A stretch of DNA of 64,000 nucleotides from a virus (lineage: Duplodnaviria > Heunggongvirae > Uroviricota > Caudoviricetes). Below the pieces are notes generated by a model, which saw nothing but the letters and a program-made list of their open reading frames with translations, was not told where the DNA came from and made no database searches. Each line of letters starts with the position of its first letter. Positions within the stretch are counted from its first letter, which is position 1. The translations under genes were made by a program, and so were the position numbers. Positions 4,275-47,292 of the stretch are shown one piece after another. The stretch lies in the IMG/VR virus record IMGVR_UViG_2617270980_000003. One strand, given 5' to 3'.

Positions 4275-4458
4275 GATTCATCTATCCTAAAAAGTTACGA
4301 AATTTGATAACTAAACTTAGTTATCAAGTTTGATATAAGTATTGATCCACCTCTGCTTCATGTAAAGCAAAAAAACATCTTTCTTTTGTCTATTGTGGAT
4401 CAATGGTTGCTGACAACACTAAAAGTTAATAATTTCAAATTGATAGGAAGAAAAGAAA
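4275..4458. promoter_or_regulatory. divergent early promoter/operator region between ner and repressor; near-perfect 24-bp palindrome TTGATAACTAAACTTAGTTATCAA at 4304-4327 plus further TTGATA half-sites
   Basis: Palindrome and TTGATA repeats read directly; location between divergently transcribed regulator genes. Confidence 0.5.
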
Positions 4459-9038: not shown

Positions 9039-9368
9039 CTATGCCACGACCTGTTCAAAATCTGCCGTTATGGTTACCCACAACGCCCCCACGCTTGCCG
9101 ACCATTTACGACAAACCACCCTGATCGGCTTCCAGTCATAAGGTGGCGTCCACTGAAATGCGCGGACGCCACCGTGCCGTTCCAGAAAGGCTTTTAAAGA
9201 TGGGTGTTCACATTTACGAACACGTATCGTCACGCTGTAAATCGACAACTGGTTATTCAGTCCCGCCGCACGACGCTGTTCATAACCATCGCCCAGCTTC
9301 ACTGTCACCACTTTCGGCTCTGATACCACATTCATATCCGGGCGCACTTTCCAGTGAAACGTCTCCAT
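9039..9368 (-). CDS. M: lambda M-like minor tail protein
   Basis: 109 aa between H and L, lambda gpM-like. Confidence 0.88.
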   Translation of the reverse strand: METFHWKVRPDMNVVSEPKVVTVKLGDGYEQRRAAGLNNQLSIYSVTIRVRKCEHPSLKAFLERHGGVRAFQWTPPYDWKPIRVVCRKWSASVGALWVTITADFEQVVA

Positions 9369-12300
9369 TACCGATATGCTCCACTTAACCGACCACCATC
9401 ACGGGCCTGCTGTTGCATAAAGTCCGCTGCCGCTTTTTTCCCAAGGTCATAAACCACCTTCAGGGCAGCCGGACCTATCTGCCCGTTCGTGCCATCGTTA
9501 TTGATCTCGATGTTGTACTGCGGGGCAAACATCGCCATACCTGAACCACCAATATCCGCCACAACCCCCAGCTTACCGTCAGCACCACGACGCAGTGGCA
9601 GAATGGCTTCAGGTCCAGCTTCCCCCATCACACCCGCGCCTTTTGCAAAAGCAAAAAACGTCGGACGGTTAACCACCGTGCCACTGTAACGACTCAAATC
9701 AGCAGACTGATAAATCCCCCCATTGGCATTCAGGGAAAGGCTGCTGAGATCAAATCCCAGTACACTGCCAATCCCTTTTATCGATTTCATCATGGTTGCC
9801 TGCGCCAGGATTTTCGCCATATCTGACAGCACCGAAGAGGTGAAGGATTTGAAGTTGAGTTTGCCGGTAGTGACAAAAGTTGCCAGGCCATTTCCCATGT
9901 TGCTGAAGGCTGATGAGAACCCCTGTTCTGCTGTTCCTGCCGTATTGTCTGCATCCACGGTAAAATCCTGAAATGCACGCAGGACTCCGTTTTTCCAGTT
10001 ACCCTGCACAACTTCAAGCTGTTGCCAGTAACGGCGATTCTCATTCAGTTGTCGGTTCAGGCTCTCCGTCAGCGCCTGCTCGGCCTTTCTGTAGTCATCC
10101 GTGTTATATGTCCCTTTCTGCTCACTATCCCGCCTCAACTGCTCCAGCTGTTGCTGGTATTTCTGGCGAAGACTCAGTTGTACCTGATATCGCTGCCGCT
10201 GCTGATCACCCATACCCACCGTGGCGATATCCAGGTCATGTTGCTGACGCTGAGCGCGCTCTTCTTCAGCCAGTTGACTGGTCAGCTGAATTGTTTTTTT
10301 CTTCAGATCGTTGAGTGCCGTTTGTTTCTGAAGCTCCTGCTGTTTTACATCCAGCAGCGTCAGTGCCTGAATCAGTTCATCTTTACGGGCCAGCACACTC
10401 TTTTCATCTGCCGTCAGTTTTTTCCCGTCCAGATCGCTGATGCGCTGCTGCAGAGCCAGAAGCTGTTTATGCGCTTCTGTCATCTTTTCAGTGGCAATGC
10501 CTGCTGACTGTCTTGCAGCAGCAATCTGTCCTTCCACCTGTGCCTGTTGCTGACTGTACTGCAGCAATAACCGGGTGGCCTCATCATTACGGGTTTCGCG
10601 TGTTTTTTTCTTACCGGATGCCAGGGCTTTCTCGTAACGTTCATTTTCACGTTGTATCGCCGCATCCCTGACAGCCTGGTCGGCGTACTGCATGGCATTA
10701 ATACGCGCAATTTCACGCTGATGTCGTGCTGCTTCCGTTTCATTCATCCGGTTCAGTGCAGCATTTTCAGCATTACGTCGTTTCTGTTGCTCCTGATAAT
10801 TCCGCTCTGCCTGCTCTTTTGCATCCTGCAAATCCTTCTGGCGTTTTTTCTCCTGAAGATCGTTAAGACGCTGCTGATCGTATTCAACCTGAGAAGATGA
10901 TGCCGTCCAGGGGAGTCTTTTCGCCCGCGACACTTTCTCCTGTAAAGCGGTAATCTGTTCATCCAGCGAGTCTTCACGACCAATATTCATGGCCGCATCC
11001 CAGAAACGACTCCACAAATCAGACAGATACTTCAGCGTACTGCCAAGCGCATTGAGGTTATTATCAATATCCGCAGTACGCCGACCGGTTTCCTCTGCCA
11101 GTGCAGACATGGCTATCCGTGCAGCATCACTGGACCGTCCCTGATCCCCAAGGACACGTATCTGCTCAAGCTGAGTGGCAGTAAGAAAATGCAGCTCATT
11201 GTCCAGAGCCTTCGCGGCATTTACAGGATCATCCTTCAGCCGCTTAAACTGATTTATGGTATCGCTGACCGACTGGCCAACCGATCGCTCCATCTGTGCG
11301 GCAGCTCTCGCCACCATACCGATATCGTTTCCACGAAATGCACCACTCCCCACCACCTGCGCCAACGCACCGGCTGCAGCATGTTGCGTGATACCATTCC
11401 CGGAAATAGCACGACTGAGCGTCCACAGCTGCCCGGCAGTGACTCCGGCATAATGCCCCGTCAGCGACAACTGGCGGTTAAATTCTTCCCCCTCCTTCTG
11501 ACCGTCATACCAGGCTTTACCCAGACCATAGACGGCCGCGGCAATACCGCCAATAACCCCGCCAAGCATCATGCCTTTCGGTGACATCAGTGTGTCTATC
11601 CATCCGGCACGGTTAGCCAGCGTTATCCCGGATCCCCTCAGCGCCCCTAAATTGCCGCGGGCCAGTTCACCTATCAGAACGCCTATCTCCTGGCGGGCTG
11701 CTGCACTTTTCAGACCCAGCGAATGCGTGGCTTTTCCTGCCTGCTCCATTTTGCGGATATACACTTCTGCAGCACTGCTTACCCCCAGCTGGGCTGCCTT
11801 GGCACGAAGCAACTCAGAAGATGAAAGATTCTGGCGGGTTGCCTGCTCTTTAAGCTGACGGATAAACGCCACTTTCTGTCGGGTAGCCTCTTCCTCAGCC
11901 TGTGTAAGAACACGGGTTTTCGCAGTAACCTCAGAAATCAGCGCCAGATAATCCTGCTGACCAATCCCGCCACTGTTTCTGGCCTGTCGGATCTGCTGCT
12001 GAATACGCTGTAATTCCTGCAGCCCCGCACTGGCCTGTTTCACACTGTCAATCTGACGATAAAACGCAGCAGCCGCTTTATCCTGAGCCTCCGCCAGAGC
12101 CATGGCCTGCGCCTGTTCCTCGCGCATTTTCTGGCTCAGCGCCTCCATGCGCTGGCGGGTTTTCTCCACCTCGCGGGCCATGCGTTCATGAGCCTGTGCG
12201 TTCTTCTCCACCGTCTGCGCATGGACGGATGCGGCTGTTGCAGCCGAAGAAGCCGCCTGCGTTGTCTGCCGGGCGGCCTGAGTCTGACGCTCCATAAAAC

Positions 12301-23701: not shown

Positions 23702-23726
23702 ACATCTATTCAAAAGCCCCGCAATG
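23702..23726. terminator. intrinsic terminator downstream of ogr (hairpin GCCCCGC-AAT-GCGGGGC with flanking A/T runs)
   Basis: Read directly from sequence. Confidence 0.5.
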
Positions 23727-23737
23727 CGGGGCTTTTA

Positions 23738-23986
23738 TCATATAGTCAAACTTAACTGATCGCGTCCATAGTGCGAAGCGGGAAAGACACCTGCGGGAAT
23801 AAAGTCAGGCGCTAATTTATCGCGCCGCTCACGCTTGGTGACAATTTTTTCAACACTGTTAAGCGTTGTGAATGACAAGCCGCATTCCATATTCTGGCAC
23901 TGATGGTATTGGCGAATCGTTACTTCACTAAGAGGCTTACTGGTGCGAGTGCGGGCCGTAGCGCCGCAGTGTGGGCATTTGAACAT
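23738..23986 (-). CDS. ogr: Ogr/Delta-family zinc-finger late transcription activator
   Basis: MFKCPHCG...RTS...RQYHQCQNMECGLSF matches P2 Ogr as recalled (four-Cys zinc finger). Confidence 0.9.
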   Translation of the reverse strand: MFKCPHCGATARTRTSKPLSEVTIRQYHQCQNMECGLSFTTLNSVEKIVTKRERRDKLAPDFIPAGVFPASHYGRDQLSLTI

Positions 23987-24024
23987 AATGGTGACTCCCC
24001 TGGGGAGTTGAACTCATCACCATT

Positions 24025-25158
24025 CTATTCAGTTTCTGCGATCCAGTCAGATATTTTTGCTTCAAAGTTAAGCTGTGTTGTGAATCCATTACTATCAACA
24101 TCATGCTGTACCTTGCTGATTATCCAGTCCTGGGCGTCAATATCAGCTTTAAAACCGGTTACCGTTGCGTGCATTTCCGGGTACAACTCCGCGCGCCCGC
24201 GCGCCAGGGTGATCGAAAACTCCGCCGCGCCGCGCTGTAACTGCTGCCACTTTGCCGCCGCTGCGCGCCTGGCGGCTTCTTCGTTCTGGAAGGTTTTACG
24301 CATAATAAAAACGTTACCTTCAGCGCCTTCAATATAGTCACCTTCCCTGCTGCTGCTCTTATCCGCTTTTTTAGTTGTGGCACGACGACGGACACTGACC
24401 TTTTTCTTTTTCCCGTAATTCAGATCAAGCCAGTACGCGCGGACGCCGGTATAAGCGTCACGATCAGCAACGCGGAAGCGGTGCCGGTCGCCACTGCTGC
24501 GCGTGATGGCAATCGACGGAATAGCCTTCCCTGATGCTGTGAAACCACCACCCGGCACGATAAATAACAGACTGCCATTTTTTACCGTGGCGATGGCCCC
24601 TAACATTTCCGCCATTCTGGTCAGAAATGACATATCGCTTTCCTGAGTCTGATCGGCGTGGTCAATTTCCACATCCATCAACAGATCGCTGATTTGCGGC
24701 GTCAGGTCATACCGTTTTGCGATAGCGGACACAACCCGCTCCACAGTCACATCATGCCAGGAGACTTCACGCTTCACGTTAAACTCTTCTCTGAAATCTG
24801 CACTCCTGGCGGTCACCGTGATACGGTCTGGCGGCCCGTCATGCGCGACTTCATCAACCGTGTACACGCCCTTATAAACCAGCGCTTCACCCATCCACCC
24901 CAGCCAGAAAGACAACTCAGCACCGCGCAGCGGAAGGGCAACGCCTCCATCAGTATCATCCAGCTCTAATGTCAGCTGATCGGCGTCAAATCCCCTGTTG
25001 TCCGTCAGGCTGATGGATATCACGCGATCTGATAATTCTGTTAACACCTTTCCGCCCTGCCGGACGCTGAATGCCGGTATTTTTAACGCCTCCGTCAGGA
25101 TGTCATCGACACCGCCAGCCGCGCCCGAAATCATACTGCTGATCACTGAAACACTCAT
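24025..25158 (-). CDS. D: P2 gpD-like tail protein (late control D family)
   Basis: About 378 aa, gpD-like; ATG at 25158 preceded by GGGAGGG; ORF-track start at 25272 is TTG. Confidence 0.85.
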   Translation of the reverse strand: MSVSVISSMISGAAGGVDDILTEALKIPAFSVRQGGKVLTELSDRVISISLTDNRGFDADQLTLELDDTDGGVALPLRGAELSFWLGWMGEALVYKGVYTVDEVAHDGPPDRITVTARSADFREEFNVKREVSWHDVTVERVVSAIAKRYDLTPQISDLLMDVEIDHADQTQESDMSFLTRMAEMLGAIATVKNGSLLFIVPGGGFTASGKAIPSIAITRSSGDRHRFRVADRDAYTGVRAYWLDLNYGKKKKVSVRRRATTKKADKSSSREGDYIEGAEGNVFIMRKTFQNEEAARRAAAAKWQQLQRGAAEFSITLARGRAELYPEMHATVTGFKADIDAQDWIISKVQHDVDSNGFTTQLNFEAKISDWIAETE

Positions 25159-25218
25159 ACACCCTCCCGTTTTGCTGAATAATTCCACGCGGGCGCGCGT
25201 GGGAGAATTCGTTTTAGT

Positions 25219-25236
25219 TGTCAGAGAGATAGCACA
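25219..25236. promoter_or_regulatory. Ogr-type late promoter element TGT-N12-ACA in the D/FI divergent intergenic region (putative P_F)
   Basis: TGTCAGAGAGATAGCACA; 18-bp stretch CGTTTTAGTTGTCAGAGA identical to the one upstream of P at 42381. Confidence 0.5.
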
Positions 25237-25311
25237 ACCAGAAAGGCGTGAAGCTGTTACGTCAATCAGCAATCATGGTGGCGAACTCAACAAAACGTAA
25301 TGGTGACAAAC

Positions 25312-26502
25312 ATGTCTGAGACACGTTTTCACGGTGCTCGCACCAAAGAAGAAACCGACATCACGAAGGTAATTAACGACATTGACTCCAGCGTCATTGG
25401 CGTAATTGTCATCGCTGATGACGCGGACGAAGACGCATTTCCACTCAACACCCCAACGCTTATCACGCGGCCTCAGTCGATGCTGGGCAAGGCGGGGAAA
25501 ACAGGGACGCTGTACAAAACGCTGAAAGCCATTTCAGACCAGGCAAGCGCGAAAGTCATTGTTGTTCGTGTCGCCGCAGCCAAGCCGCTGGAAGGCGACG
25601 CAGAAGCGGAAACGCAAGTGCAACTGATTATCGGTGGCTCTGATGCTGAAGGTAACTACACCGGCATGTATGCGCTTCTGACTGCCGAACAGAAGACACA
25701 GTATCGACCGCGCATCCTGGCGGTTCCTGAATACGACACCGAAGAAGTGACGGCACAGCTTTGTGTGATCGCCAAACAGCTTCGCGCCTATGTTTATGCA
25801 AGCTGTAACGGCTGCAAGACGCTGGCGGAAGCCCTCGCGTATCGTAAAACCTTCGCATCACGCGAACTCACGCTGATCTGGCCTGACTACATCGCATATA
25901 ACCAGGTGTCCGGGGAAAATGAAGTATTCCCGGCCCCGGCCTATGCGGTAGGGCTGCGCGCGTTTATTGATAACCAGTACGGCTGGCACCGCTCGCTATC
26001 TAACATTGCCGTCAGCAATGCGCTTGGCATTTCGAAGGATGTTTTCTGGGCGCTTCAGGCTGAAGACAGTGACGCACAGACGCTGAACAACGCCGAAATC
26101 ACCACCATCATCAAGCGTAATGGCTTCCGTTTCTGGGGTAACCGCACCACAGACACCAATGAATTTGTGTTTGAGGTGTACACCCGCACGGCGCAAATCC
26201 TGGCGGACACCATCGCAGAGGCGCAATTTGAAACCATTGACGGGCCACTCACCCCGACCAACGTGAAAGACGTGGTGAGCGCGATTAACAAGAAACTCAG
26301 TGCACTGGTCACAGCTGGCAAGTTGCTTGGCGCGGAAGCCTGGTTTGACATCGTGGACAACGGAACCGCAAACCTGATTCAGGGCAAAGTGGCGATCCGC
26401 TACAAGTACACGCCGGTGCCACCGATGGAAGATTTGACGCTGATCCAGACGTTCACCGATGAATATTTTGAAGGCGCGTTTTCGTCTCTGGGGAGTAACT
26501 AA
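25312..26502 (+). CDS. FI: tail sheath protein (P2 FI-like)
   Basis: About 396 aa; strong collinear match to P2 FI as recalled (FPLN.P.LIT, GFRFWGNRT, YTRTAQ, YKYTPVPP). Confidence 0.92.
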   Translation: MSETRFHGARTKEETDITKVINDIDSSVIGVIVIADDADEDAFPLNTPTLITRPQSMLGKAGKTGTLYKTLKAISDQASAKVIVVRVAAAKPLEGDAEAETQVQLIIGGSDAEGNYTGMYALLTAEQKTQYRPRILAVPEYDTEEVTAQLCVIAKQLRAYVYASCNGCKTLAEALAYRKTFASRELTLIWPDYIAYNQVSGENEVFPAPAYAVGLRAFIDNQYGWHRSLSNIAVSNALGISKDVFWALQAEDSDAQTLNNAEITTIIKRNGFRFWGNRTTDTNEFVFEVYTRTAQILADTIAEAQFETIDGPLTPTNVKDVVSAINKKLSALVTAGKLLGAEAWFDIVDNGTANLIQGKVAIRYKYTPVPPMEDLTLIQTFTDEYFEGAFSSLGSN

Positions 26503-27015
26503 ATGGCGATTCCACCAAAACTACGGCTGTTCACCTGCTTTGTGAACAGCGTGAACAATATCGGCAAAGTGACATCTGTCACGCTGCCAAAACTGACCCG
26601 CAAAACTGACGACTATCAGGGCGGCGGGATGATTGGCTCTGTTGCTGTCGATCTCGGACTGGATAGCGGCGCGCTTGATGCCACGATGGTTGTAGGCGGC
26701 CTGGTTCAGGCTCTGCTACTGGAATACGGCGGCGATCTGGACGGAACGCTTATCCGATTCACCGGGGAATATTACACATCCGGCGAGAGTCAGATCGTTG
26801 ACGTGGAAATGCGCGGCAAATTCACCGAAATCGACGGCGGCGAAAGCAAGCAGGGCGAAGATACGTCCGTAACCTACGCCATTAAAAACACGTACTACAA
26901 GCTGTCAATTGACGATAAGCCCATCTGGGAAATTGACCTGCTGAACTTCGTGTACAAACGCAACGACGAAAATATTTACCCTTCCCGCGTAATGTCTGCG
27001 CTGGGCATGGGATAA
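26503..27015 (+). CDS. FII: tail tube protein (P2 FII-like)
   Basis: 170 aa immediately after sheath gene. Confidence 0.9.
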   Translation: MAIPPKLRLFTCFVNSVNNIGKVTSVTLPKLTRKTDDYQGGGMIGSVAVDLGLDSGALDATMVVGGLVQALLLEYGGDLDGTLIRFTGEYYTSGESQIVDVEMRGKFTEIDGGESKQGEDTSVTYAIKNTYYKLSIDDKPIWEIDLLNFVYKRNDENIYPSRVMSALGMG

Positions 27016-27068: not shown

Positions 27069-27380
27069 ATGACCGAAGAAAACACCGTAACACTGACACG
27101 CCCGATTAAACGCGACGGCAACGAAATCAAAACCATCACGATCACTGACGAAGTGAAACAGGCTGGTACCCTGCGCGGCCTTCGCCTGGTGAACGTGATG
27201 AATATGGACGTGGACAGCATCAGCACCCTGCTAACCCGCTGCACTTCCCCGCGCCTGAAGCTCAAAGAAATCAGCGAAATGGCAACATCTGACTTTGTTG
27301 AACTTTGCGAGGCGCTCACGCCTTTTTTAGCGCCGAAGGAGCCTGGCACGAAGAACGAGACGGAGACGGAGAGCGAGTAA
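27069..27380 (+). CDS. E: tail assembly chaperone E
   Basis: 103 aa between tube and tape measure; contains slippery heptamer. Confidence 0.85.
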   Translation: MTEENTVTLTRPIKRDGNEIKTITITDEVKQAGTLRGLRLVNVMNMDVDSISTLLTRCTSPRLKLKEISEMATSDFVELCEALTPFLAPKEPGTKNETETESE

Positions 27381-27541
27381 ACGCGCCCCACTTTGACCTG
27401 ATCGATGATCTGGTTGCTGATATAGCAGTTATTTTCAACTGGCCGCCCTCAGAGGTTTTCACTATGTCCCTGAGTGAGGTGATAGCCTGGCGTGAACGGG
27501 CGGCTATCCGAAGCGGAAACAGTGAAGATGAAAGACCTTAA
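27069..27541 (+). CDS. tail assembly chaperone E+E' (product of -1 programmed frameshift at T_TTT_TTA, 27323-27329)
   Basis: Heptamer TTTTTTA in E frame; -1 frame continues open to 27541 (FFSAEGAWHEE...), as in P2 E/E'. Confidence 0.75.
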
Positions 27542-30500
27542 TATCCGTGTCGCCTTCAGTGCGATTGATAAGTTAACCCGCCCGGTAAATGCCGCCCGCA
27601 ACTCAGTGGGCGGCTTATCTGAATCCCTCAAAAAAACACAATCGTCTATCAAAGATCTGGAAACGCAATCCCAGGCATTCAACCGCCTGAATGAGCGCGT
27701 TAAAAAGACATCCCAGCAACTCACCACAACACAGCGAGCCTTTGACGGCCTGAATAAAGCACAGAAAAACGGCACGGTACTAACCGACGCACAGCGCGAG
27801 CGCATGACGGCACTGGCAGCGAAACTTGATCGCCTGAATGCCAGCCGGTCACAGGAGACAGCAAAACTCCAGCAAGCGTCCCAGGCGCTGCGCGCGCACG
27901 GCGTTTCACTGGCGGGCGGCGATCGCACAATTCAAAGCGCTATCAGACGCACTGAGCAATACAACCAGACGCTTGAGAGAGAACGGCGACAACTTGCCGC
28001 AGTCACCAACGCGCGCGCCCGTTATGACCGTCTGAGCGCCACAGCGGGCAAATTGCGCACCGGCGGCGCGGTGGCGATTGGCGCAAGCGCGGGAGCGGGC
28101 TACGCTGCCGGACGCTTCCTGGCCCCTGCCGTGGGTTTTGATGAGGAAATGTCGCGCGTAGGCGCACTGACCCGCCTGGATAAAGGCGATGAACAGTTTG
28201 CCGCCCTGCGCGCCCAGGCCAAAAAACTTGGCGCTGAAACCGCATTTACCACGCGAGACGCCGCCAGCGGGCAAGCCTTCCTGGCAATGGCTGGCTTTAC
28301 ACCACAGTCAATTCAGGCTGCGCTGCCTGGCGTTCTGAATATGGCGCTAGCCGGTGGCATGGATCTGGGTGAGTCCGCTGATATCGGTTCAAACATCCTG
28401 ACGCAATTCAAGCTGTCATCAGATCAGATGGACAGGGTTGGCGATACGCTAACAGCCGCATTTACCCGTACCAATACCGACCTGCGCGCCCTGGGCGACA
28501 CAATGAAATACGCGGGGCCAGTGGCGGCTAATCTGGGTATTAGCCTGGAAGAGGCATCCGCTATGGCGGGGATGCTTGCCAATAACGGTCTGCGCGGCAG
28601 TGACGCGGGTACAGCATTACGTTCCAGTCTATCCCGCCTTGCTTCACCACCAAAAGCCGCGGCTGATGCTCTGAAAGAGCTAGGCGTGTCGGTTGCCGAC
28701 GCCAACGGGAAAATGCGCCCGATGGAAACGGTACTGTTAGACCTTTTCAAAGCCACACAGAAATACGGGCAGGTTGATCAGGTATCTTTCTTCAAAAATA
28801 TCGCCGGTGAAGAGGCCTTTGTGGGCCTCCAGACGCTGGTACAGGCGGCAGGCTCGGGAGAACTACAAAAGCTCACAAAAGAACTTCAGGGCGCTGCCGG
28901 TGAATCCGCTACCGTCGCAAAAAAAATGGCGGACAACCTGGGCGGGGATCTAAAAGAACTCGATAGCGCCTGGGAAGCATTCCGTATCCAGATTGAAGAA
29001 CTGGCGGACGGCGCACTGCGAAAACTCACCCAGGCACTGACCGGCACGATCGGCGTGATGACTGAATGGGCGAATAAGAATCCGCAGCTATCAAAAACCC
29101 TTCTGGCTGTTGGCGGCAGTGTGCTGGCCCTCACCGCCGGGATTGGCGCAACGTCCCTGGCTATTGGCTTACTTCTGGGGCCACTGGCAAAACTTCAACT
29201 CGGCTTTGCCCTGCTAACCAGCGGGAGCGGGCTGGGTGGCGCGGTGACACTGTTCAGCCGCCTGGCTGGCGTTATTTCCGGGCCGCTTGGCGGCATCCGT
29301 GGCTGGGGTGTCGTCTTCAGTAGAATGACCGGCAACGCCGGGAAACTGGCTGGCGCGCTTGCCCCATTGAGAGGACTGCTTGCCGCCGCGTTTATCTCAC
29401 CAGGTGCCGCCCTGGGCGGAATTGTAAAAGGGCTTGGTAGTCTCCTGCTTCGCCTGACCGGCATACCTGCAATCATGGGGATCGCTAGCTCGGCCCTCTC
29501 GATGCTCGGCGGCGCGCTGTCATTGCTGTTAAGCCCGATCGGGCTGATTGGCGCGGCCTTCATTGCCACAGGGTTGCTTATCTGGCGATTCTGGGAGCCG
29601 ATCAAAGCCTTCTTTGCGGGCTTCTTTGCCGGTGTAATGCAGGCGCTTACGCCGTTCCGTGATGCCTTCGCCGGACTGGCCCCCGTCTTTGATGTGATCT
29701 CAAATGCCGTTTCTCAGTTGTGGCAGTGGTTCAGCAACCTGCTTTCACCAATGACGACCAGCAAAGAGACATTGGATAAATGCGCAAGCGCTGGGGAGAC
29801 GTTCGGCAAAGTGTTTGGCCTGGCAATTCAGGGGCTAATGTTACCTCTGACTGGATTGGCCAAAATGGTTGGCTGGATACTTGAAAAGCTGGGGCTGATT
29901 CCGTCCGGGATTGAAGCGGCGAAAGCAAAAGCGGAGAAAGTGCAGAAGGAACTCACACCGGCAGGATTGGCTATGCTGCAGGACAAGGTTGGCACGCTCA
30001 CTGTCGATATGAAAGCAGTAACCGCGCCACCTATCGCCCCACCATCACCAGTGATTGCTGTTGATACGGGAACTCAACGGCGGTTACAGAAAATTGCGGA
30101 CAATACCGGCGGGATGCTGGATGCAACCAAAAAGCGGATCGGCCCTGGCGATATCGTGTTTAAGAATCTGCCCCGCGCATTAGCCGTCCACGGCGCATGG
30201 CAGGAAGCACAATCACCCCCAGGCGCAAACCTGGCCCAACTTAGCGCGCGCCCGGTTATCGCGGCGGCATCAGCACCGATTAAACCGGCAGTTGAAGTAC
30301 AGGCTATTAGCGGGCAATCCAGTAAACAAGCCAGCAAACCGGCGCAAAACACCGCTCCTGATGAAATACATATTCACATTCATATGCACGGCGATCTCAG
30401 CAACGACGCCCGCGACATTGCACGGATGGTGACTGATGCAGTTGGGGCAGAACTTAACAAGCGTTCCCGCTCTGGTAGCAGTTTCAGAGACAAAGATTAG
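27528..30500 (+). CDS. T: tail tape measure protein (P2 T-like)
   Basis: About 990 aa, Ala/Gly-rich with hydrophobic central segments, between E' and U; ORF-track start at 27492 is GTG, ATG at 27528 chosen. Confidence 0.85.
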   Translation: MKDLNIRVAFSAIDKLTRPVNAARNSVGGLSESLKKTQSSIKDLETQSQAFNRLNERVKKTSQQLTTTQRAFDGLNKAQKNGTVLTDAQRERMTALAAKLDRLNASRSQETAKLQQASQALRAHGVSLAGGDRTIQSAIRRTEQYNQTLERERRQLAAVTNARARYDRLSATAGKLRTGGAVAIGASAGAGYAAGRFLAPAVGFDEEMSRVGALTRLDKGDEQFAALRAQAKKLGAETAFTTRDAASGQAFLAMAGFTPQSIQAALPGVLNMALAGGMDLGESADIGSNILTQFKLSSDQMDRVGDTLTAAFTRTNTDLRALGDTMKYAGPVAANLGISLEEASAMAGMLANNGLRGSDAGTALRSSLSRLASPPKAAADALKELGVSVADANGKMRPMETVLLDLFKATQKYGQVDQVSFFKNIAGEEAFVGLQTLVQAAGSGELQKLTKELQGAAGESATVAKKMADNLGGDLKELDSAWEAFRIQIEELADGALRKLTQALTGTIGVMTEWANKNPQLSKTLLAVGGSVLALTAGIGATSLAIGLLLGPLAKLQLGFALLTSGSGLGGAVTLFSRLAGVISGPLGGIRGWGVVFSRMTGNAGKLAGALAPLRGLLAAAFISPGAALGGIVKGLGSLLLRLTGIPAIMGIASSALSMLGGALSLLLSPIGLIGAAFIATGLLIWRFWEPIKAFFAGFFAGVMQALTPFRDAFAGLAPVFDVISNAVSQLWQWFSNLLSPMTTSKETLDKCASAGETFGKVFGLAIQGLMLPLTGLAKMVGWILEKLGLIPSGIEAAKAKAEKVQKELTPAGLAMLQDKVGTLTVDMKAVTAPPIAPPSPVIAVDTGTQRRLQKIADNTGGMLDATKKRIGPGDIVFKNLPRALAVHGAWQEAQSPPGANLAQLSARPVIAAASAPIKPAVEVQAISGQSSKQASKPAQNTAPDEIHIHIHMHGDLSNDARDIARMVTDAVGAELNKRSRSGSSFRDKD

Positions 30501-30512
30501 GAGAGCAAAACA

Positions 30513-31001
30513 ATGATGATGGTTTACGGAATGTTCGTCTTTGAGTTAAAAACCATTCCCCACCAACAATTACAGCAGTCAAAGACATGGCGGCATGTAA
30601 AGAACGAGCGCATAAACCGATCGGCAAAGTGGCAATACATTGGTGCAGGTGACGATCAGATTACCTTATCCGGTGTTTTGTACCCATCAGTGACCGGCGG
30701 TAAGGTGAGTCTAACTGTGCTCGATACACAGGCCTACACCGGACGCCCCTGGCCTCTTATCAGCGGCACCGGGCGGATCTATGGCATGTATTCGATAACG
30801 CAGCTTCAGACCACCGATACTGAATTTGACCAGTATGGGGAGCCGAAGAAAATAGAATTTACGATCACGTTTCAAAGGCAGGATGAAGACCTGCGCGAAA
30901 GCCTCCAGTCTTCATCAGTGAGTGATTTACTCGGCAACCTGCAAAACACAGCCAACTCAGCGCTGAATAATATCAGCGCCGCCGCATCCAGTCTGTTTTA
31001 A
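30513..31001 (+). CDS. U: tail protein U (P2 gpU-like)
   Basis: 162 aa immediately after tape measure. Confidence 0.85.
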   Translation: MMMVYGMFVFELKTIPHQQLQQSKTWRHVKNERINRSAKWQYIGAGDDQITLSGVLYPSVTGGKVSLTVLDTQAYTGRPWPLISGTGRIYGMYSITQLQTTDTEFDQYGEPKKIEFTITFQRQDEDLRESLQSSSVSDLLGNLQNTANSALNNISAAASSLF

Positions 31002-31167
31002 ACAAGTAAAAATATACCCCTCGGATTGGTTTTCACCGAGGGGAGCAACAAGAGACCTAGCTCTAATTTTGTTCAATCATGTGTAAATTGTGCAGACTAA
31101 ATGATTGTCCTTAGAATTTTTGTAAGTAAAATAACCACAATTTTTCCTAATTGCGCGACTAGACTCT

Positions 31168-32138
31168 ATATGAAAAACCTTTCCTCAATTGATTACGCAA
31201 AACTTTTCTTTGCGTTTTGTATCATTTTTATACACACAGACATTTTAGGCGGCAACAGTAATTATATAGGATATGTTACTTGCCAGGGACTGCTAAGGAT
31301 TGCAGTGCCATTCTTTTTCATTACTAGTGGATATTTTTATTTTTCTGTAATGCAAAAAAATAAAATTAAAAAATGGTTTTCTCACAATATAAAAACCTAT
31401 GCTCTATGGACGCTTCTTTACTTACCAATAATACTAGGATTAGTTGGTTTTATTAGGGCGGGTAAGCCTTTAGCGACAGACCTTACATATTTATCTCTAA
31501 ATGCAGTATTTGGATTTTGGCACTTATGGTTTTTCCCTGCCCTGATAGTATCGGCATTATTAACATTACTTTTAGCTAAGCTAAAAGATCGCACATTAAT
31601 AATCATATGCTGCATACTTTATACGTGCGGCACGTTACTTCAATATCGCGCAAATTATTCCATTGACATAAATCGTGACATATGGTCTCTCGCTACAGTT
31701 TTCTTTTCCAGAAACGGTCTTTTCATGGGTTTTCCATTGTTTATGCTTGGATACCTTATAAATAAAAATAACATAAGAAATAACAATACATATTTACTCA
31801 TTGGTTCCATTATTTTGGTCATCATTGAGGCATCCGTAAATTATTCATATGGCACATATACCTTTGATATGCTTTTTTCACTTCCATTCGCTGGTGTTTT
31901 TGTTTTTTTAAAAGTTCTAGATATCACCCTGAAAACAAAAAACACCTTCACAATTCGCGAGCACTCAAAAAACATATATCTTATACAAATCTATGCCATT
32001 CAGTTTGCAAAACAATTTGCATCTGATTGGTTAGTCATAACAACAATCGCATGCACTATTTGCATTAGCTATTCAATAGCTAATATCATTAAAGATAATT
32101 TAATTGCAAACTTTAGACTAAAAAGCCTATCAAATTAA
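31168..32138 (+). CDS. membrane acyltransferase (acyltransferase-3 family, Oac-like), AT-rich cargo at the P2 Z/fun position
   Basis: About 323 aa, multiple hydrophobic helices, low GC versus neighbours; located between tail fibre assembly gene and the sheath block. Confidence 0.75.
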
Positions 32139-35345: not shown

Positions 35346-35700
35346 TGCCTGACTCCTTCACCTTTACTGCACCGCTTACCGGCTGCATTGTTGTGGTAAC
35401 CAATCCGCCTAACTCAACCGTCACCGCCCCGGCGTCTGAATACGTAATATCAACCTGGTTAAGTGCTATCCGCGGTTCCCATTGCGTCAGCGCAATCACC
35501 GTGGCGCTCATTAGCTGAAGGCGTGTTGTTTCGTTTTTCGGGGCGTCCAGCAAATCAGGTAACAAGCTGCCGTACGACCGGCGCATTACGCGTGACCCCA
35601 ACGGCGTCAGCAGGACATCTTTCACGGACTGCCAAAGGTGATCGCTATCTGAAACCGTCCCTGTGCCGCCCTGGTTCATTCCCGTATATTTCGCCGTCAT
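35332..35700 (-). CDS. W: baseplate wedge protein W (gp25-like)
   Basis: 122 aa, P2 gpW-like. Confidence 0.85.
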   Translation of the reverse strand: MTAKYTGMNQGGTGTVSDSDHLWQSVKDVLLTPLGSRVMRRSYGSLLPDLLDAPKNETTRLQLMSATVIALTQWEPRIALNQVDITYSDAGAVTVELGGLVTTTMQPVSGAVKVKESGNGDS

Positions 35701-36278
35701 GCCGTCCCCTTAGTCCTGCTATTGCCACTCTCAACACCACCATGATCATGATCGTCAGCCTGGACGCCGTTTGACTTCAGTGCGCCGCCGCTGTGAGTTA
35801 CATCGCCGGTCATCTTTCCGCCCTCAGTGAAATCAAAGGTTTTCGCTTTCAGATGTTTTGTGCACTCCACCTCTGGCGCATCGAGCGTGATTTTTGTTGC
35901 TGCCTGGATGGTGGCGGTTTTCATTCCGCCGGCACTCAGTGCGCCCGCCTTCGCGTCATAGCTAAATTCAGCCCCATCAGGCGCGGTGATCATCATCTGC
36001 ATCAGGCTACTGGCGGGGGCGTCGTTTTCGTTGCTGTAGAGGCTGCCCAGCACAACGGCTGTTTCAGGATTGCCGCCCAGACATCCCAGCAAAACCTGTT
36101 CGCCCAGCGACGGCGCACACCAGAATTTGAAAGCACCGGCGCGCGTTGTCGTCCAGCGAAGCCATGTTGTCTGCAAATCATCGCTCTGCACCCGTACACT
36201 TTTACCGTCTTTCGATATGTCAAAAACCACGCCCACACGGAGCACGTTAGACAGGAGGCGCAACAGTTCGGCACTCAT
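35697..36278 (-). CDS. V: baseplate spike/hub protein V
   Basis: 193 aa, P2 gpV-like. Confidence 0.85.
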   Translation of the reverse strand: MSAELLRLLSNVLRVGVVFDISKDGKSVRVQSDDLQTTWLRWTTTRAGAFKFWCAPSLGEQVLLGCLGGNPETAVVLGSLYSNENDAPASSLMQMMITAPDGAEFSYDAKAGALSAGGMKTATIQAATKITLDAPEVECTKHLKAKTFDFTEGGKMTGDVTHSGGALKSNGVQADDHDHGGVESGNSRTKGTA

Positions 36279-36913
36279 GCCCCGGCACCCCCCAGGCTGT
36301 TAATCACCGCGCTACGGATCAGCGCTTCATCAGCCTTAGAAATTCCCAACAGGACACGCGGCGCATACTTCGCAAATGACCCCGGCCCTACCTGCTCACG
36401 CAATCCGTACTGATGAATGCGGGCGATACGGGCCGCCATACCGCTGTAACCCACTTCAGCCCCCTCACTGGATGCCTTCACCTTCATAAAGCGGGCGGTT
36501 CTCAGCTTCACGAACATCGGAGCCTTGACCACTTTTGGGCGCTGGCCCGCGCGGGTATTAATTTCCGTATAGCGCTCAATATCGGCACGGTAGAACGTGC
36601 GGATCTCATTGCGGTCTTCATCAAATCCGGTAATCGTCCGCCCATATTTACCGCGCCCGCTGTGCCAGTTTTTCAACCGGCGCAACTGCCCTTCCCAGAT
36701 AAAGGCGATCCCCTGCTGGGTGCGCAGCGTTTTACGGCGGCGTGACGGGTACTGGCTTCCGTCCGGGTTACGCTGTGCGCGTATGCGCTGTTGCTGGCTA
36801 ATTCGTAAAACCTTACCCACGGCGCGCGCCGTTCTGGCCCGCCCACTGGATGACGCCCCCGCCAGGATGTCTGCGAAATACTGATCCAGCGCGTGAACAT
36901 CACCGGCATTCAT
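36275..36913 (-). CDS. S: tail completion protein S
   Basis: 212 aa at the P2 S position. Confidence 0.8.
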   Translation of the reverse strand: MNAGDVHALDQYFADILAGASSSGRARTARAVGKVLRISQQQRIRAQRNPDGSQYPSRRRKTLRTQQGIAFIWEGQLRRLKNWHSGRGKYGRTITGFDEDRNEIRTFYRADIERYTEINTRAGQRPKVVKAPMFVKLRTARFMKVKASSEGAEVGYSGMAARIARIHQYGLREQVGPGSFAKYAPRVLLGISKADEALIRSAVINSLGGAGA

Positions 36914-42316: not shown

Positions 42317-42389
42317 GTTCTTTCCTGCCGGTTGGTTTCTGTTTTTCCATGATGTCAGTTGCTAAGTCATTGTCTCAACGCGTTTTAGT

Positions 42390-42407
42390 TGTCAGAGACG
42401 GCCCACA
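42390..42407. promoter_or_regulatory. Ogr-type late promoter element TGT-N12-ACA in the O/P divergent intergenic region
   Basis: TGTCAGAGACGGCCCACA; shares the 18-bp stretch CGTTTTAGTTGTCAGAGA with the D/FI region. Confidence 0.5.
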
Positions 42408-42472
42408 ACCCAAACAGCGGGAACGGCCCACGCGCGCGGGTTAATCTCTCCATCGAAACGAGAGGACACCGC

Positions 42473-44197
42473 ATGATCCAGGACGCATTTGTAAGACAGA
42501 GAGCAAAGCAGCTTTACTGGCAGGGCTACCCGCCAGCAGAGATCGCACGCCTGATGGGTATCAGTCAGAACACGGTTTATTCGTGGAAAAAGCGCGACGA
42601 ATGGGACGAAACGCCCGCGATTCAGCGCGTCACACAATCTATTGATGCCCGGTTATGCCAAATCGCGATGAAACCAACAAAGACCGGCGGCGATCTGAAG
42701 GAAATCGACGCGCTCACGCGCCAGGTGAAGAAGCTGGCAGAAGGCCAACCGGCGCAACCCTTCAAGAAAGCGCGCGCGGGCAAGAAGAAAAACCACTTCA
42801 CCGAAGCGCAGATCGCCGCGCTGCGGGAAAAAATTCAGGACTCTCTGGCCTGGCATCAGCAGGGATGGTTTGAACAGCGCCAGCAACGAAACCGCATGAT
42901 CCTGAAAAGTCGCCAGATTGGCGCAACCTGGTATTTTGCCCGCGAAGCGCTATTACAGGCGCTGCGGGATGACGTTAAGCACGGATACCAACGCAACCAG
43001 ATTTTTCTGTCAGCGTCACGCCGCCAGGCGCACCAGTTCCGGGGATTCATTCAGAAGATTGCCGAAGAGGTAGACGTAGAACTAAAGGGCGGTGACAAAA
43101 TTTTGCTGTCTAACGGGGCTGAATTGCATTTTCTCGGCACGTCTGCCGCTACTGCGCAGAGCTACACCGGCAACCTGTTTTTTGATGAATTTTTCTGGGT
43201 AGGCAACTTTGCCAACCTTCGCAAAGTGGCTGGCGCTATGGCAACCCTGAAAGGGCTTACGCGCACTTACTTTTCAACGCCATCGAGCGAAAGCCACGAA
43301 GCCTACCCCTTCTGGACGGGCAAGCGCTGGAATGAGAAGCGGGCCAAGTCCAGCAGGGTAGACTTCGACACAAGCTGGAAAACGCTAAACAGCGGCCTAT
43401 TGTGCCCGGACAAAACCTGGCGGCAGATTGTCACCCTAAAGGACGTGATCGACCACGGCTGGGAGTTCACCGACCTGGAAGAAATCCAGGACGAAAACAC
43501 CCCGGACGAATACACCAACCTGTACATGTGTGAGTTCGTCAGAGAAGGCGAGGCTGTTTTCTCACTCAATCAGCTACTGACGTGTGGCGCGGACGGCTAC
43601 GACGACTGGCAGGACTGGAAACCCTACGCACCCCGCCCGCTGGGTGATCGTGAAGTCTGGATAGGCTACGACGCCAACGGCGGCAGCGGCAACGGTGACA
43701 GCGGCGCTGTTTCCGTGGTTGCCCCTCCCCTTGTCAGTGGCGGCAAGTTCCGCACGATAGAGACGCGCCAGCTACGCGGGATGGAGTTTGAAGAACAGGC
43801 CAAAGTGATCGAAGACCTGACGATGAAATATAACGTTCGACACATCGCAATTGACGGCACCGGCATCGGTGAAGCGGTCTGGCAACTGGTCAAAAAGTTC
43901 TTCCCGGCTTCGGTCTGTTTCATAATGTCGCTGTCATCAAAGCGCACCCTGGTACTGAAAATGCAACAGGTGATCCGCGCGGGGCGCTGGGAGTATGACC
44001 GCAGTGAACAGGCGCTAGTGTCAGCATTCAACGCTGTCAGAAAGATCACCACCCCCGGCGGACAAGTCACTTATGACACCGACCGCGCGCGCGGAGTCAG
44101 TCACGGCGACTTAGCCTGGGCCAATATGCTGGCAGTCATCAACGAGCCGCTTGGACGCGAGAACGGCGGCGGCGGTAGTTTCGTTATGGAGTTTTAA
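42473..44197 (+). CDS. P: terminase large (ATPase) subunit P
   Basis: About 574 aa; ATG at 42473 with GAGAGGA upstream; ORF-track TTG start at 42389 lies inside the promoter element. Confidence 0.9.
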   Translation: MIQDAFVRQRAKQLYWQGYPPAEIARLMGISQNTVYSWKKRDEWDETPAIQRVTQSIDARLCQIAMKPTKTGGDLKEIDALTRQVKKLAEGQPAQPFKKARAGKKKNHFTEAQIAALREKIQDSLAWHQQGWFEQRQQRNRMILKSRQIGATWYFAREALLQALRDDVKHGYQRNQIFLSASRRQAHQFRGFIQKIAEEVDVELKGGDKILLSNGAELHFLGTSAATAQSYTGNLFFDEFFWVGNFANLRKVAGAMATLKGLTRTYFSTPSSESHEAYPFWTGKRWNEKRAKSSRVDFDTSWKTLNSGLLCPDKTWRQIVTLKDVIDHGWEFTDLEEIQDENTPDEYTNLYMCEFVREGEAVFSLNQLLTCGADGYDDWQDWKPYAPRPLGDREVWIGYDANGGSGNGDSGAVSVVAPPLVSGGKFRTIETRQLRGMEFEEQAKVIEDLTMKYNVRHIAIDGTGIGEAVWQLVKKFFPASVCFIMSLSSKRTLVLKMQQVIRAGRWEYDRSEQALVSAFNAVRKITTPGGQVTYDTDRARGVSHGDLAWANMLAVINEPLGRENGGGGSFVMEF

Positions 44198-45258
44198 TGA
44201 ACACAACAACACATGAAAGCGGTATGACCATGCTTACTGACGGCGCGCAACAGGCTGATATTGGCGAAGCACTAAAGCGCGATCCCGCTCTGAGCGCCTT
44301 CACCTTTGATGGGCCATACCAGGTCGCGGACGCTTACGACCTACTCGACAATATGTATTGCGCCGACAACGGCAGATATTACGAAACGCCGGTGGACTGG
44401 TACGGGCTTGCGCGTTCATTCGGCAAAGCATCCTGGCACCAGTCAGCGCTGTACTTCAAGCGCAACGCGCTGGCGGGATGCTTTATTCCACACCCGCTAC
44501 TGTCTCGCCAGACGTTCTCCGCCCTGGCGCTTGACTGGTTTGTGTTTGGCAACTTCTATCTTGAAGAACGAAAGAACCGGCTAGGCGGGCGGCTACCGCT
44601 TCGCCATTCCCCTGCGAAGTACACCCGGCGCGGCACCGACCTGGACACGTACTGGTTTATCAGGCAGTGGAAAGACGAATGCGCCTTTGAAACCGGCACA
44701 GTTTGCCACGTGCTGAACCCCGATATTCACCAGGAAATCTACGGGATGCCGGAATATATGGGCACCCTGCTGTCAGCCAGCCTGTCACACTCGGCGGACA
44801 TGTTTCGCAAAATGTACTATGAGAACGGATCTCATGCTGGCTGCATTCTTTACATCGGCACATCACAGGTAGATGACGCTGGTGTAAAACAGATACAGCA
44901 AACACTGGCAGGAGCCAGGAACAAAGGCGCATTTAAGAACGTAGTGATCCACGCACCAGGCGGCGGCAAAGATGGGGTACAACTGATGCCCTTCAGCCAG
45001 ATATCTGCAAAGGATGAGTTTTTAAATATTAAATCAGCTACGCGTGATGACATCCTTGCCGCTCACCGCGTACCACCGCAACTGATGGGGGCCATGCCGG
45101 ACGGCAACGGCTCATTCGGTGATATGGAGAAAGCCGCGCGCGTGTTTGCCATCAACGAACTGATGCCAGCAATGGAAGCACTGAAGCACGTCAACGACTG
45201 GCTTGGCGAAGAAGTGATCCGCTTTAAACCTTACGCCCTGCTTGAATCCACCAAATAA
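44197..45258 (+). CDS. Q: portal protein Q
   Basis: 353 aa immediately after P, start overlapping P stop. Confidence 0.9.
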   Translation: MNTTTHESGMTMLTDGAQQADIGEALKRDPALSAFTFDGPYQVADAYDLLDNMYCADNGRYYETPVDWYGLARSFGKASWHQSALYFKRNALAGCFIPHPLLSRQTFSALALDWFVFGNFYLEERKNRLGGRLPLRHSPAKYTRRGTDLDTYWFIRQWKDECAFETGTVCHVLNPDIHQEIYGMPEYMGTLLSASLSHSADMFRKMYYENGSHAGCILYIGTSQVDDAGVKQIQQTLAGARNKGAFKNVVIHAPGGGKDGVQLMPFSQISAKDEFLNIKSATRDDILAAHRVPPQLMGAMPDGNGSFGDMEKAARVFAINELMPAMEALKHVNDWLGEEVIRFKPYALLESTK

Positions 45259-45470: not shown

Positions 45471-45663
45471 CGAACACTCGTGTTTTCGTGCACTTGCAGA
45501 TCCACCGCCAGCCCCCGCAGATCCTGCCTCGATAATCCCAAAAAGGGGCTGATTTTATTGTGCATTTTTGCGCACAATCGTGCATCACTTTACTCTATTG
45601 AAAAGTAACCTCATGCCTAGTTATGATGCCGTTAAATCATTAAATAAATGAGGAAAAGAAATT

Positions 45664-47013
45664 ATGCGATTGACCGCTCCTGTTAAAGCGTTCTCAGATG
45701 GTTTTAGTACAGCAGATGACATATTTGGACGTAAAAAACTTCATGACATCATCATGCGGGTAGCAACAAATGCCCCAGATAAAAGTCTTGTACTTGCGCT
45801 CAATGATGAATGGGGTAACGGAAAAACCTCATTTGTAAAAATGATGTCATCAGAAATAAATAAAAACCATGCTGACAACTTTGACGTTATTTACTTTGAC
45901 GCTTTTGAAAATGACTATCAATCAGACCCATTTGTAGCCTTAACATCAAAAATTTATTCACTCATAAAAAAAGAAGATGGAAAGCTTAAAAACCTCGGGA
46001 AAGAGTTATTATCCATTGGTAAAAAACTAGGCGCGTCATTCGCACTTAATGGTGCAAAATTTGCCGTAAGCACTTTCACAAGTGGATTAGTCTCAGGTAA
46101 CGCACTGGAGAAAGCAAGTGATGCCATCAGTGACTCTCTCACATCACCTATTGAAGAGTACATTGAAGAAAAAATAAAAACGAGCGAGAGTGAGTTAGCA
46201 ACAATTGAGCAATTTAGAGCATTGCTGACCAAGATTCACACTGAGTGTGGGAAAAAAATAATATTTATAATTGATGAGCTAGACAGGTCGCGACCTGATT
46301 TTTCCCTTGACTTGCTAGAGAAAATAAAACATATATTTTCAGTGGAAGGTTTTGTTTTCTTACTAGTAGTTAACCGTGAGCAGTTTGAAAAAAGTATAGA
46401 GTGTAGATATGGGAGCATAAATACAAGATTATATTTAAATAAATTTATTCATTATTGGTTTACTCTTCCTAAAAAAAGTATGCTCTCAGTAGGCTGCCGA
46501 GCAGGCTATGAACGTTCAACGTTAACACAATATCTCCTGTCGTTAGATCAAGGGAATGACATACTGATTCGGAATGGTTCTCTCGTAAAAACCCTCGCGT
46601 ATCTTCTAGAAATGAATAACTGTTCACTGCGAGAGGCTGAGCGTTGCTATTCAACATTCGCAATAATGAACGACCCCAGCGAAGTAAATTCCTACCGACA
46701 TGAAATATTTCATGTTGCCATCGCACTAGTTGCTTTCTTGAAAATATTCAACCAATCCTTACTCATGGAAATATTAAACAAAAAACTGACAGAAGATGAG
46801 ATATTTAAACGATTATCAATTCCTGTAAACCTTGTCGATGTTTCTGAGATTTATTATATTGCAATATTGTTAAAATACCACTTAGCCACCGATGAAGAAC
46901 TACGTTCCTCTGATATGCTCACTGAGTACGCATTCATGGCTGTAATACCTGGACAACGAGTCAAATGGTTTGAAATGATGTATGAGAAGATCGAAGGCTT
47001 TGATATTAACTGA
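45664..47013 (+). CDS. KAP-family P-loop NTPase (soluble; no TM insert evident), cargo in P2 old/tin hotspot
   Basis: Walker A LNDEWGNGKTSF and Walker B IIFIIDELDR; AT-rich; own SD (GAGGAAAAG); lies between cos/Q and gene A on the opposite strand to A. Confidence 0.8.
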   Translation: MRLTAPVKAFSDGFSTADDIFGRKKLHDIIMRVATNAPDKSLVLALNDEWGNGKTSFVKMMSSEINKNHADNFDVIYFDAFENDYQSDPFVALTSKIYSLIKKEDGKLKNLGKELLSIGKKLGASFALNGAKFAVSTFTSGLVSGNALEKASDAISDSLTSPIEEYIEEKIKTSESELATIEQFRALLTKIHTECGKKIIFIIDELDRSRPDFSLDLLEKIKHIFSVEGFVFLLVVNREQFEKSIECRYGSINTRLYLNKFIHYWFTLPKKSMLSVGCRAGYERSTLTQYLLSLDQGNDILIRNGSLVKTLAYLLEMNNCSLREAERCYSTFAIMNDPSEVNSYRHEIFHVAIALVAFLKIFNQSLLMEILNKKLTEDEIFKRLSIPVNLVDVSEIYYIAILLKYHLATDEELRSSDMLTEYAFMAVIPGQRVKWFEMMYEKIEGFDIN

Positions 47014-47292
47014 TAAGCCATATTATCTTTTATCTCTATTTTGAAGCAATAAAACTAGAAGTAAACTCTAAAAAGCCGCCAATCCCGGCGGTCTTTGAAG
47101 GGCATTACAATTTCGTGGCGCTCAGTTATACATGGATTCTTAGCAAGGACCAAGCCGCGACACACTACATTGTAGCTCCCCGCTATGTGATTTGAAGTTG
47201 CTGGCAATCAAAAAATGCTCCCTTTAGTACCACTAATTTTGTAGAGTATGGTTAACTTTGAAAAGTTGTAATACGTCAACTAAGGAACAGCG

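Follow-up and report, generated by a model that had tools for sequence, protein, structure and literature searches.

A candidate Ogr-type activator site common to two predicted divergent late promoters between genes D and FI of a P2-like prophage

How is tail gene D transcribed in a P2-like prophage in which it no longer lies downstream of the tail sheath and tube genes? In P2 the genes FI-FII-E-T-U-D-ogr follow one another on one strand, so that D is the last gene of a one-directional FI-to-D operon and P2 has no PD promoter. Relative to that order, the FI-to-U block of the prophage studied here is flipped, whereas D and ogr keep their orientation. A preliminary description of this DNA proposed that a single symmetric Ogr-type dyad in the spacer between D and FI could serve transcription in both directions, which would explain how D is expressed after the inversion. 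Here we follow up this proposal by comparing the spacer with its homologs and with the annotated late promoters of P2.

The stretch of DNA analyzed (hereafter the window, 64,000 nucleotides) carries a P2-like (Peduoviridae) prophage at ~23.6-55.6 kb, nested in a lambdoid prophage of Escherichia coli. The region on its left (about 5-23.6 kb) carries lambda-like head/tail, portal and terminase genes, and that on its right (56-64 kb) Qin-like lysis and Q-region genes (rzpQ, rrrQ, essQ and ydfU). Gene identities were assigned by PHROG and Pfam scans. Relatives were found by protein-level search, as megablast against phage records matched the neighboring lambdoid segment only. A near-identical P2-like prophage adjoins fieF in E. 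coli ES1, so the attachment site differs. The genes and signals of the P2-like prophage used below are:

23712-23732, minus strand: terminator-like hairpin GCCCCGC-ATT-GCGGGGC then TTTT, 3' of ogr (read from the sequence, unlisted by the scan)
23738-23986, minus strand: ogr, Ogr/Delta zinc-finger late activator, 82 aa (Pfam Ogr_Delta, E = 4e-19, above the curated cutoff)
24022-24050, minus strand: sigma-70-like promoter CTGACT-17-TAGAAT, overlapping the D stop codon, upstream of ogr
24025-25158, minus strand: D, tail/baseplate hub, 'late control D' (PHROG_52 tail protein, E = 3e-153; Pfam Phage_GPD)
25312-26502, plus strand: FI, tail sheath (PHROG tail sheath, E = 4e-110), first gene of the FI-FII-E-T-U operon (to 31001)
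26503-27015, plus strand: FII (tube)
27069-27380, plus strand: E
27492-30500, plus strand: T
30513-31001, plus strand: U
31101-32138, plus strand: acyltransferase (cargo), Acyl_transf_3 family, 345 aa, at the convergent U/G junction
back to 42316, minus strand: G, H, I, J, W, V, S, R ... N, O
42473-45258, plus strand: P, Q

The acyltransferase occupies the slot of Z/fun in P2 and is likely a lysogenic-conversion gene, for example for O-antigen acetylation; a related copy is present in E. coli ES1 and none in phiT5282H or ABWA45. Two further cargo genes (45664-48444), encoding a KAP-family P-loop NTPase of 449 aa and a YaaC-like protein of 383 aa, lie between Q/cos and replication gene A. This is the position of old/tin in P2, which makes the pair candidate anti-phage defense cargo with an operator of its own. 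A perfect palindrome, ATTGTGC-N8-GCACAAT (45557-45578), is found 86 bp upstream of the two genes; although it contains a perfect TGT-N12-ACA core it was rejected as a late site, as it has no late-promoter geometry.

The spacer under study separates virion structural late operons, with the sheath-tube-E-T-U genes on one side and D on the other. Alignments of relatives by tblastn begin at the FI ATG at 25312, and an in-frame ATG at 25300 was rejected as the FI start because it is unconserved in relatives and overlaps the ribosome binding site (RBS). With FI starting at 25312 (plus strand) and D at 25158 (minus strand, RBS GGGAGGG at 25168-25162), the divergent spacer measures the 153 bp originally proposed. 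It contains the core dyad TGTCAGAGAGATAGCACA (25219-25236), a perfect TGT-N12-ACA centered at 25227.5. From the dyad center to the ATG the distance is 69.5 bp for D and 84.5 bp for FI, and 75 nt separate the dyad end from the FI ATG. The dyad of the preliminary description is therefore present, its quoted start at 25210 including 9 nt of T-rich flank, and the distances given there (about 70 and about 76 bp) are correct, though one was counted from the dyad center and the other from the dyad end. A scan of the prophage for GTTGT-N12-ACAAC, allowing at most two mismatches overall and at most one in the TGT/ACA core, returned this dyad as the single one in the D/FI spacer and no second. The candidate elements of the spacer, with the second late dyad of the prophage, are as follows:

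25179-25184, minus strand: PD -10-like hexamer AATTAT, 43.5 bp from the dyad center; predicted start near 25172
25185-25201, minus strand: PD 17-bp GC-rich spacer CACGCGCGCCCGCGTGG, mostly alternating purine/pyrimidine
25202-25207, minus strand: putative PD -35-like hexamer TTCTCC (TTGTCT or TTTGTT in relatives)
25217-25238, no strand assigned: candidate Ogr-type dyad GTTGT-N12-ACAAC with 5-bp arms, proposed to be common to PF and PD
25248-25253, plus strand: putative PF -35-like hexamer GTGAAG, dyad-anchored, at predicted positions -35 to -30 (clade consensus GCGTGA)
25271-25276, plus strand: PF -10-like hexamer AATCAT, 43.5 bp from the dyad center; predicted start near 25283
42388-42409, no strand assigned: second late dyad GTTGTCAGAGACGGCCCACAAC, in the divergent spacer between O and P, corresponding to the P2 pO/pP site

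A T-tract, TTTTAG, adjoins the GTTGT half-site in both dyads of the window (25210-25218 and 42381-42387). In the direction of D or O the junction reads ACAAC-TAAAA, at about -44 to -41, and it is kept on the D side throughout the clade with the consensus ACAACaAa. The tract resembles a proximal UP-element subsite and, speculatively, could help to dock the alpha C-terminal domain.

The bare motif occurs at the chance rate, with 14 copies of TGT-N12-ACA found in the 64-kb window against 14.8 +/- 3.8 expected. As it is not enriched, the motif alone is no evidence for a site, and we relied instead on the extended dyad and on comparative data. The extended form GTTGT-N12-ACAAC was found three times in the window against 0.05 expected, and none of 100 shuffles reached three. 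Two of the three copies are those in the two divergent late spacers of the prophage, D/FI and O/P. These two dyads are near-identical, with CGTTTTAGTTGTCAGAGA common to both and their left halves identical. The O/P dyad is likewise flanked by two hexamers, TAATCT (42442-42447, plus strand) and ACATCA (42355-42350, minus strand), both at an offset of 43.5 bp. The third perfect copy (62798-62819) is part of the coding sequence of ydfU (DUF968) in the surrounding Qin-like prophage, where it spans the codons for a CxxC motif (...CWHCDN...). This copy was rejected as a late-promoter site, since it is inside a coding sequence and neither of its sides shows -10 geometry; chance probably accounts for it, although Ogr might bind there incidentally.

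In the D/FI spacer, AATCAT on the plus strand and AATTAT on the minus strand are equidistant from 25227.5, each at 43.5 bp. The starts predicted from them (25283, plus strand; 25172, minus strand) are 111 bp apart, as are those of the P2 pair, and the predicted PD leader of 14 nt carries the GGGAGGG RBS. A consensus scan found no consensus sigma-70 promoter within 25159-25311, which fits activator-dependent promoters.

The mirror-symmetric arrangement was then evaluated in homologous spacers. A D-locus scan yielded 66 unique homologous spacers, from which 31 representatives were chosen that are less than 80% identical over +/-70 bp and were aligned on the dyad center only; their sources are Enterobacterales and the phages P88, phiT5282H and KSP20. 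Counts across these spacers refer to homologous sequences and hence to non-independent events. The best TGT-N12-ACA match, at 76-88 bp from the FI ATG, was perfect in 39 of the 66 spacers, had one mismatch in 19 and two in 8, the one-mismatch versions being mostly TGT...AGA. Perfect copies lie 78.5-85.5 bp from the FI ATG, and the dyad of the P88 group, at 88.5 bp, was recovered once the search was widened to 70-100 bp. Both among the 31 representatives and among all 66 unique spacers, the position of the dyad is kept while its interior varies. Mean pairwise identity among the representatives was:

dyad interior: FI side 0.35, D side 0.45
half-site: FI side 0.70, D side 0.87
-10 hexamer: FI side 0.65, D side 0.54
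downstream leader: FI side 0.39, D side 0.31

In many lineages the half-site nearer FI is degenerate, reading AGA or AGG. For the core promoters, a -10-like hexamer was defined as NANNNT (A at position 2, T at position 6) and scanned for at offsets of 20-74 bp. Such a hexamer starts exactly 43.5 bp from the dyad center in 30/31 lineages on the FI side and in 27/31 on the D side, and any other offset in the scanned range was occupied in at most 6/31. Both arms qualify at 43.5 bp in 26 of the 31 lineages, and 4 lack a clean D-side hexamer at that offset. A -35-like hexamer precedes the -10 by exactly 17 bp in each arm: FI-side arms have GTGAxx, and D-side arms have TTGTCT, TTTGTT or TTCTCC. These offsets imply a dyad center at about -55.5 with respect to predicted starts in both directions. 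The leaders are variable in length (66.5-79.5 bp from the dyad center to the D ATG, 78.5-88.5 bp to the FI ATG) while the hexamer offset is fixed, indicating a constraint that ties the core promoters to the dyad and not to the gene start.

The divergent layout itself is not peculiar to this prophage. Scanning one genome per species gave 80 D loci. FI is divergent from D in all 60 loci whose D is at least 60% identical, whereas in all 20 loci whose D is about 50% identical U lies directly upstream of D, collinear as in P2. The divergent layout is also found in six other E. coli prophage copies (spacer regions 65-99.7% identical, the upper value being that of E. coli ES1) and in the phages P88 (Xuanwuvirus), phiT5282H (Novemvirus), KSP20 and SEN4/SEN5 (Senquatrovirus), and the clade extends over Kluyvera, Erwinia, Serratia, Pantoea, Klebsiella, Salmonella, Providencia, Photorhabdus, Xenorhabdus, Yersinia and other genera. 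With 60 of 60 loci divergent, the 'inversion' is old and characterizes the clade as a whole; it did not arise recently in this prophage. The initial suggestion that a shared site accounts for expression of D is supported by the comparison.

A mechanism of this kind has a direct precedent in P2, whose reference record annotates one site (3057-3087) as 'activator binding site; pO, pP promoters'. We placed a dyad, TGT-N12-CCA, within this annotated site, centered at 3071.5. The mapped starts of P (3016, minus strand) and O (3127, plus strand) each lie 55.5 bp from this center; for the start of the PP -10 hexamer, TAGCCT, the distance is 43.5 bp. The geometry is the same as in the window; that the single P2 site serves both PP and PO follows from the annotation of the record taken together with this geometry. 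Among the P2 late promoters, PP, PO and PV have their -10 hexamers at an offset of 43.5 bp and PF has its own 1 bp farther away; the PV and PF dyads lie 56.5-57.5 bp from their starts. Both P2 PP/PO and the locus in the window consist of one TGT-N12-ACA-type dyad in a divergent spacer between late operons, and P2 PP and PD each have a GC-rich spacer between -35 and -10 in one arm; the prophage's own O/P spacer, too, carries the twin dyad. They differ in that the P2 pair is P/O whereas here it is D/FI; in that the dyad of the window is perfect with 5-bp arms; and in that the P2 starts are mapped whereas those in the window are predicted. At PF the downstream genes (sheath, tube, E, T, U) and the dyad type are those of P2, and the core-promoter distance agrees within 1-2 bp. 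In P2, however, Z/fun converges from upstream and the operon runs through D into ogr, whereas in the window U is the last gene of the operon and the site would be used from its other face as well. Mirrored -10 offsets, the P2 precedent and the twin O/P dyad all favor the single symmetric site for both directions that had been suggested.

A comparable assignment exists in the Stenotrophomonas phage Smp131, in which a palindromic TGT-N12-ACA (nt 4381-4398) was assigned to both PP' and PO' and whose authors note rearranged late operons (PMC3931495). That assignment was made by annotation only and concerns a P/O pair, not D/FI, of a distant P2-like lineage. Closer counterparts are P88, phiT5282H, SEN4/SEN5 and KSP20, which have the same divergence of D from FI-FII-E-T-U and homologous dyad-bearing spacers, with ogr after D in phiT5282H and SEN5; the records of these phages do not annotate this promoter. 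The prophage of the window is a distinct lineage, its D being 73-76% identical to those of P88, phiT5282H and KSP20, and its ACA half-site is perfect, in contrast to the AGA of P88 and phiT5282H.

Variants of the half-sites match within a genome. In phiT5282H, GTTGTCG...GGCCAGACC occurs in both the D/FI and the P/O spacers, and P88 has TGT...AGA in both of its spacers. SEN5 has three dyads (P/O, D/FI and PV), and the layout of its one-directional PV (half-site ACAAT, 9 bp, TTGTTx, a 17-bp GC-rich spacer and the -10) is that of its D-side arm. This agreement points to the same activator reading both spacers within a genome. In two Providencia loci (L044 and L045) the D/FI half-sites have changed together to TCT-N12-AGA (GGTTCTC...GAGAACC). 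Such a paired change is the outcome expected of co-evolution with a symmetric binding protein and suggests a change in activator specificity; a search of the phage collection found no Providencia-type phage in which TCT...AGA could be compared with its own O/P site. The asymmetric TGT...AGA form occurs in many Enterobacter-type lineages, and the Ogr residue two positions past the last zinc-binding Cys, directly after a Cys-Ser pair, tends to be R or E where the half-site is AGA, as opposed to I, V, T or L where it is ACA. This pairing of residue and half-site is suggestive only, as P88-type proteins break the pattern and phylogeny confounds it.

The activator gene itself is at hand. The ogr product carries CX2CX22CX4C, and in the window, as in all divergent loci that we inspected, D is followed by an Ogr_Delta gene. 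The 38 bp that separate D from ogr show no terminator-like hairpin, and the hairpin at 23712-23732 is likely the end of a D-ogr transcript. The sigma-70-like promoter at the end of D is the counterpart of P2 Pogr, for which the P2 record annotates -35/-10 signals at the same place. Ogr is reported to bind inverted repeats centered near -55 and to need the RNA polymerase alpha subunit, with late transcription in P2 requiring that Ogr contact the alpha C-terminal domain (PMC3152322). Taken together, we consider it probable (roughly 0.75) that the 153-bp spacer contains a pair of divergent, Ogr-dependent late promoters with one activator site in common. Early Ogr would be made from its own sigma-70-like promoter, bind the dyad about 55.5 bp upstream of both predicted starts, and recruit RNA polymerase to either face. 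Rightward, PF would drive FI-FII-E-T-U; leftward, PD would drive D and, by read-through, ogr. Transcripts from PD continuing into ogr would then provide positive feedback, a job done in P2, according to the annotation of its record, by read-through from PF. Binding of Ogr at this dyad, the two start positions, the dependence of D on Ogr and the D-ogr feedback loop are what we infer from this combination of geometry, conservation and precedent.

The D-side arm stands out by its GC-rich tract. The palindrome CCACGCG-GGCG-CGCGTGG at 25185-25202, with 7-bp arms, is the strongest local fold and includes the 17-bp spacer of PD. A terminator-like call on the plus strand (25183-25204) was rejected because it reflects this palindrome, as was an RNA role for the fold of the spacer DNA (z = -2.4), since a palindrome between the two predicted starts would not be transcribed. 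Stretches of 10 nt or more in which purines and pyrimidines alternate were seen in 23/31 D-side and 2/31 FI-side spacers, compared with 1.8% of random 26-mers. A GC-rich alternating spacer is also found in PP of four related genomes and in PV of SEN5; that of P2 PP is GC-rich with less regular alternation. A conserved GC-rich spacer of this kind, dominated by alternating sequence (CACGCGCGCG at PD), is present in the PP arm of the window as well (42424-42441) and in homologous arms of other loci (L007, L008 and L091-L093). The tract could be Z-DNA-prone, cruciform-prone or simply promoter-weakening. As it fills the gap between -35 and -10 exactly and recurs in PP and PV, it looks like a feature of a lower-output subclass of promoters.

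Other readings of the spacer were weighed against two promoters with a common Ogr site. The dyad might serve PF alone, with D transcribed from a separate Ogr-independent promoter, such as a weak constitutive one using AATTAT, and the timing of D set by something else. The D-side arm does differ from its mirror image, with its GC-rich spacer and poorer -35-like hexamer, and the Ogr dependence of D is argued from sequence comparison; the four lineages without a D-side hexamer at the canonical offset also fit a separate promoter. Such a promoter, however, has no reason to hold a distance of 43.5 bp from the dyad, as it does in 27 of 31 lineages even though the leader varies by 13 bp, and it is the D-side half-site that is the better conserved (0.87 vs 0.70). 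Moreover, the layout of the arm is that of PP in five genomes, the P2 PP start being mapped, and of PV in SEN5, and the absence of a consensus sigma-70 promoter from the spacer also speaks against it. We regard an Ogr-independent promoter for D as unlikely. Lower still is our estimate that the real control of D lies in the tract at 25185-25202, acting instead of Ogr or on top of it as the operator of another protein or as a supercoiling switch through Z-DNA or cruciform formation. The excess of alternating runs on the D side (23/31 against 1.8% of random sequences) and the 7-bp-arm palindrome would suit such a switch, but the tract occupies exactly the 17-bp -35/-10 gap and recurs in PP and PV of related genomes, as a core-promoter feature of one subclass would and a D-specific operator would not. 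Furthermore, no candidate binding protein is evident, and the tract does not remove the need for the dyad.

The remaining two explanations carry very little weight. Transcription of D by read-through from a distant promoter, and not from the spacer, is highly improbable: nothing specific speaks for it, about 7 kb of antisense FI-FII-E-T-U and acyltransferase genes would have to be crossed before the end of the O-to-G operon is reached, and transcription would run head-on against PF. That the dyad is a chance palindrome or some other element, such as a terminator or the site of a host factor like CRP, draws on the chance frequency of the bare motif and on the accidental-looking extended copy in ydfU. 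Yet the dyad keeps its position around a variable interior across 66 unique spacers and has a near-identical copy in O/P; its 12-bp interior is not self-complementary and so forms no hairpin; and its spacing differs from that of the CRP consensus, TGTGA-N6-TCACA. The comparative data exclude the chance, terminator and CRP readings, which we regard as effectively refuted.

If both dyads act in the proposed manner, they would be sufficient for the late genes of this prophage. The prophage of the window has no PV promoter, because S and V overlap by 4 bp (35697-36913), and no dyad is near V. Given the twin dyad in O/P, two bidirectional sites would run the whole late regulon. P88 and phiT5282H likewise have no PV promoter, whereas SEN5 keeps a 157-bp S/V spacer (9262-9418) with a PV dyad, so that the number of late activator sites differs between genomes, at two or three. 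A bolder extension, which we offer tentatively and consider doubtful as a whole, is that throughout this large Peduoviridae clade the late program is run from only two bidirectional Ogr sites, O/P and D/FI, and that each of them pairs a high-output with a low-output arm. The high-output arms would serve capsid/scaffold and sheath/tube, and the low-output arms terminase/portal and D-ogr. The Z-DNA-prone alternating (CG)n spacer of the low-output arm might then be a throttle or supercoiling sensor that sets protein stoichiometry. Under the same speculative extension, reading of PD into ogr would make the sheath promoter and the activator feedback loop physically one switch.

One Ogr site for two divergent late promoters is an already known design, as P2 PP/PO illustrates, and our understanding of Ogr-type activation is therefore unchanged. 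What appears to be new is its use between D and FI in the P88-like clade. The searchable literature, which lacked the primary P2/P4 promoter papers, contained no description of a shared D/FI promoter, and no start-site, expression or binding data for this spacer or clade were found in it. Should the common site be real, it would explain the late control of an essential tail gene, D, and of the activator gene in very widespread P2-like prophages, and it would predict a minimal late regulon of two sites and four promoters. For annotation of this clade it offers a simple rule, namely to look for a dyad flanked on both sides by -10 hexamers at a distance of 43.5 bp. The D/FI spacer of 153 bp would then be a compact, bidirectional, activator-gated promoter cassette, with arms probably unequal in strength, that may be of use in engineering P2/P4-based delivery particles and tailocins.
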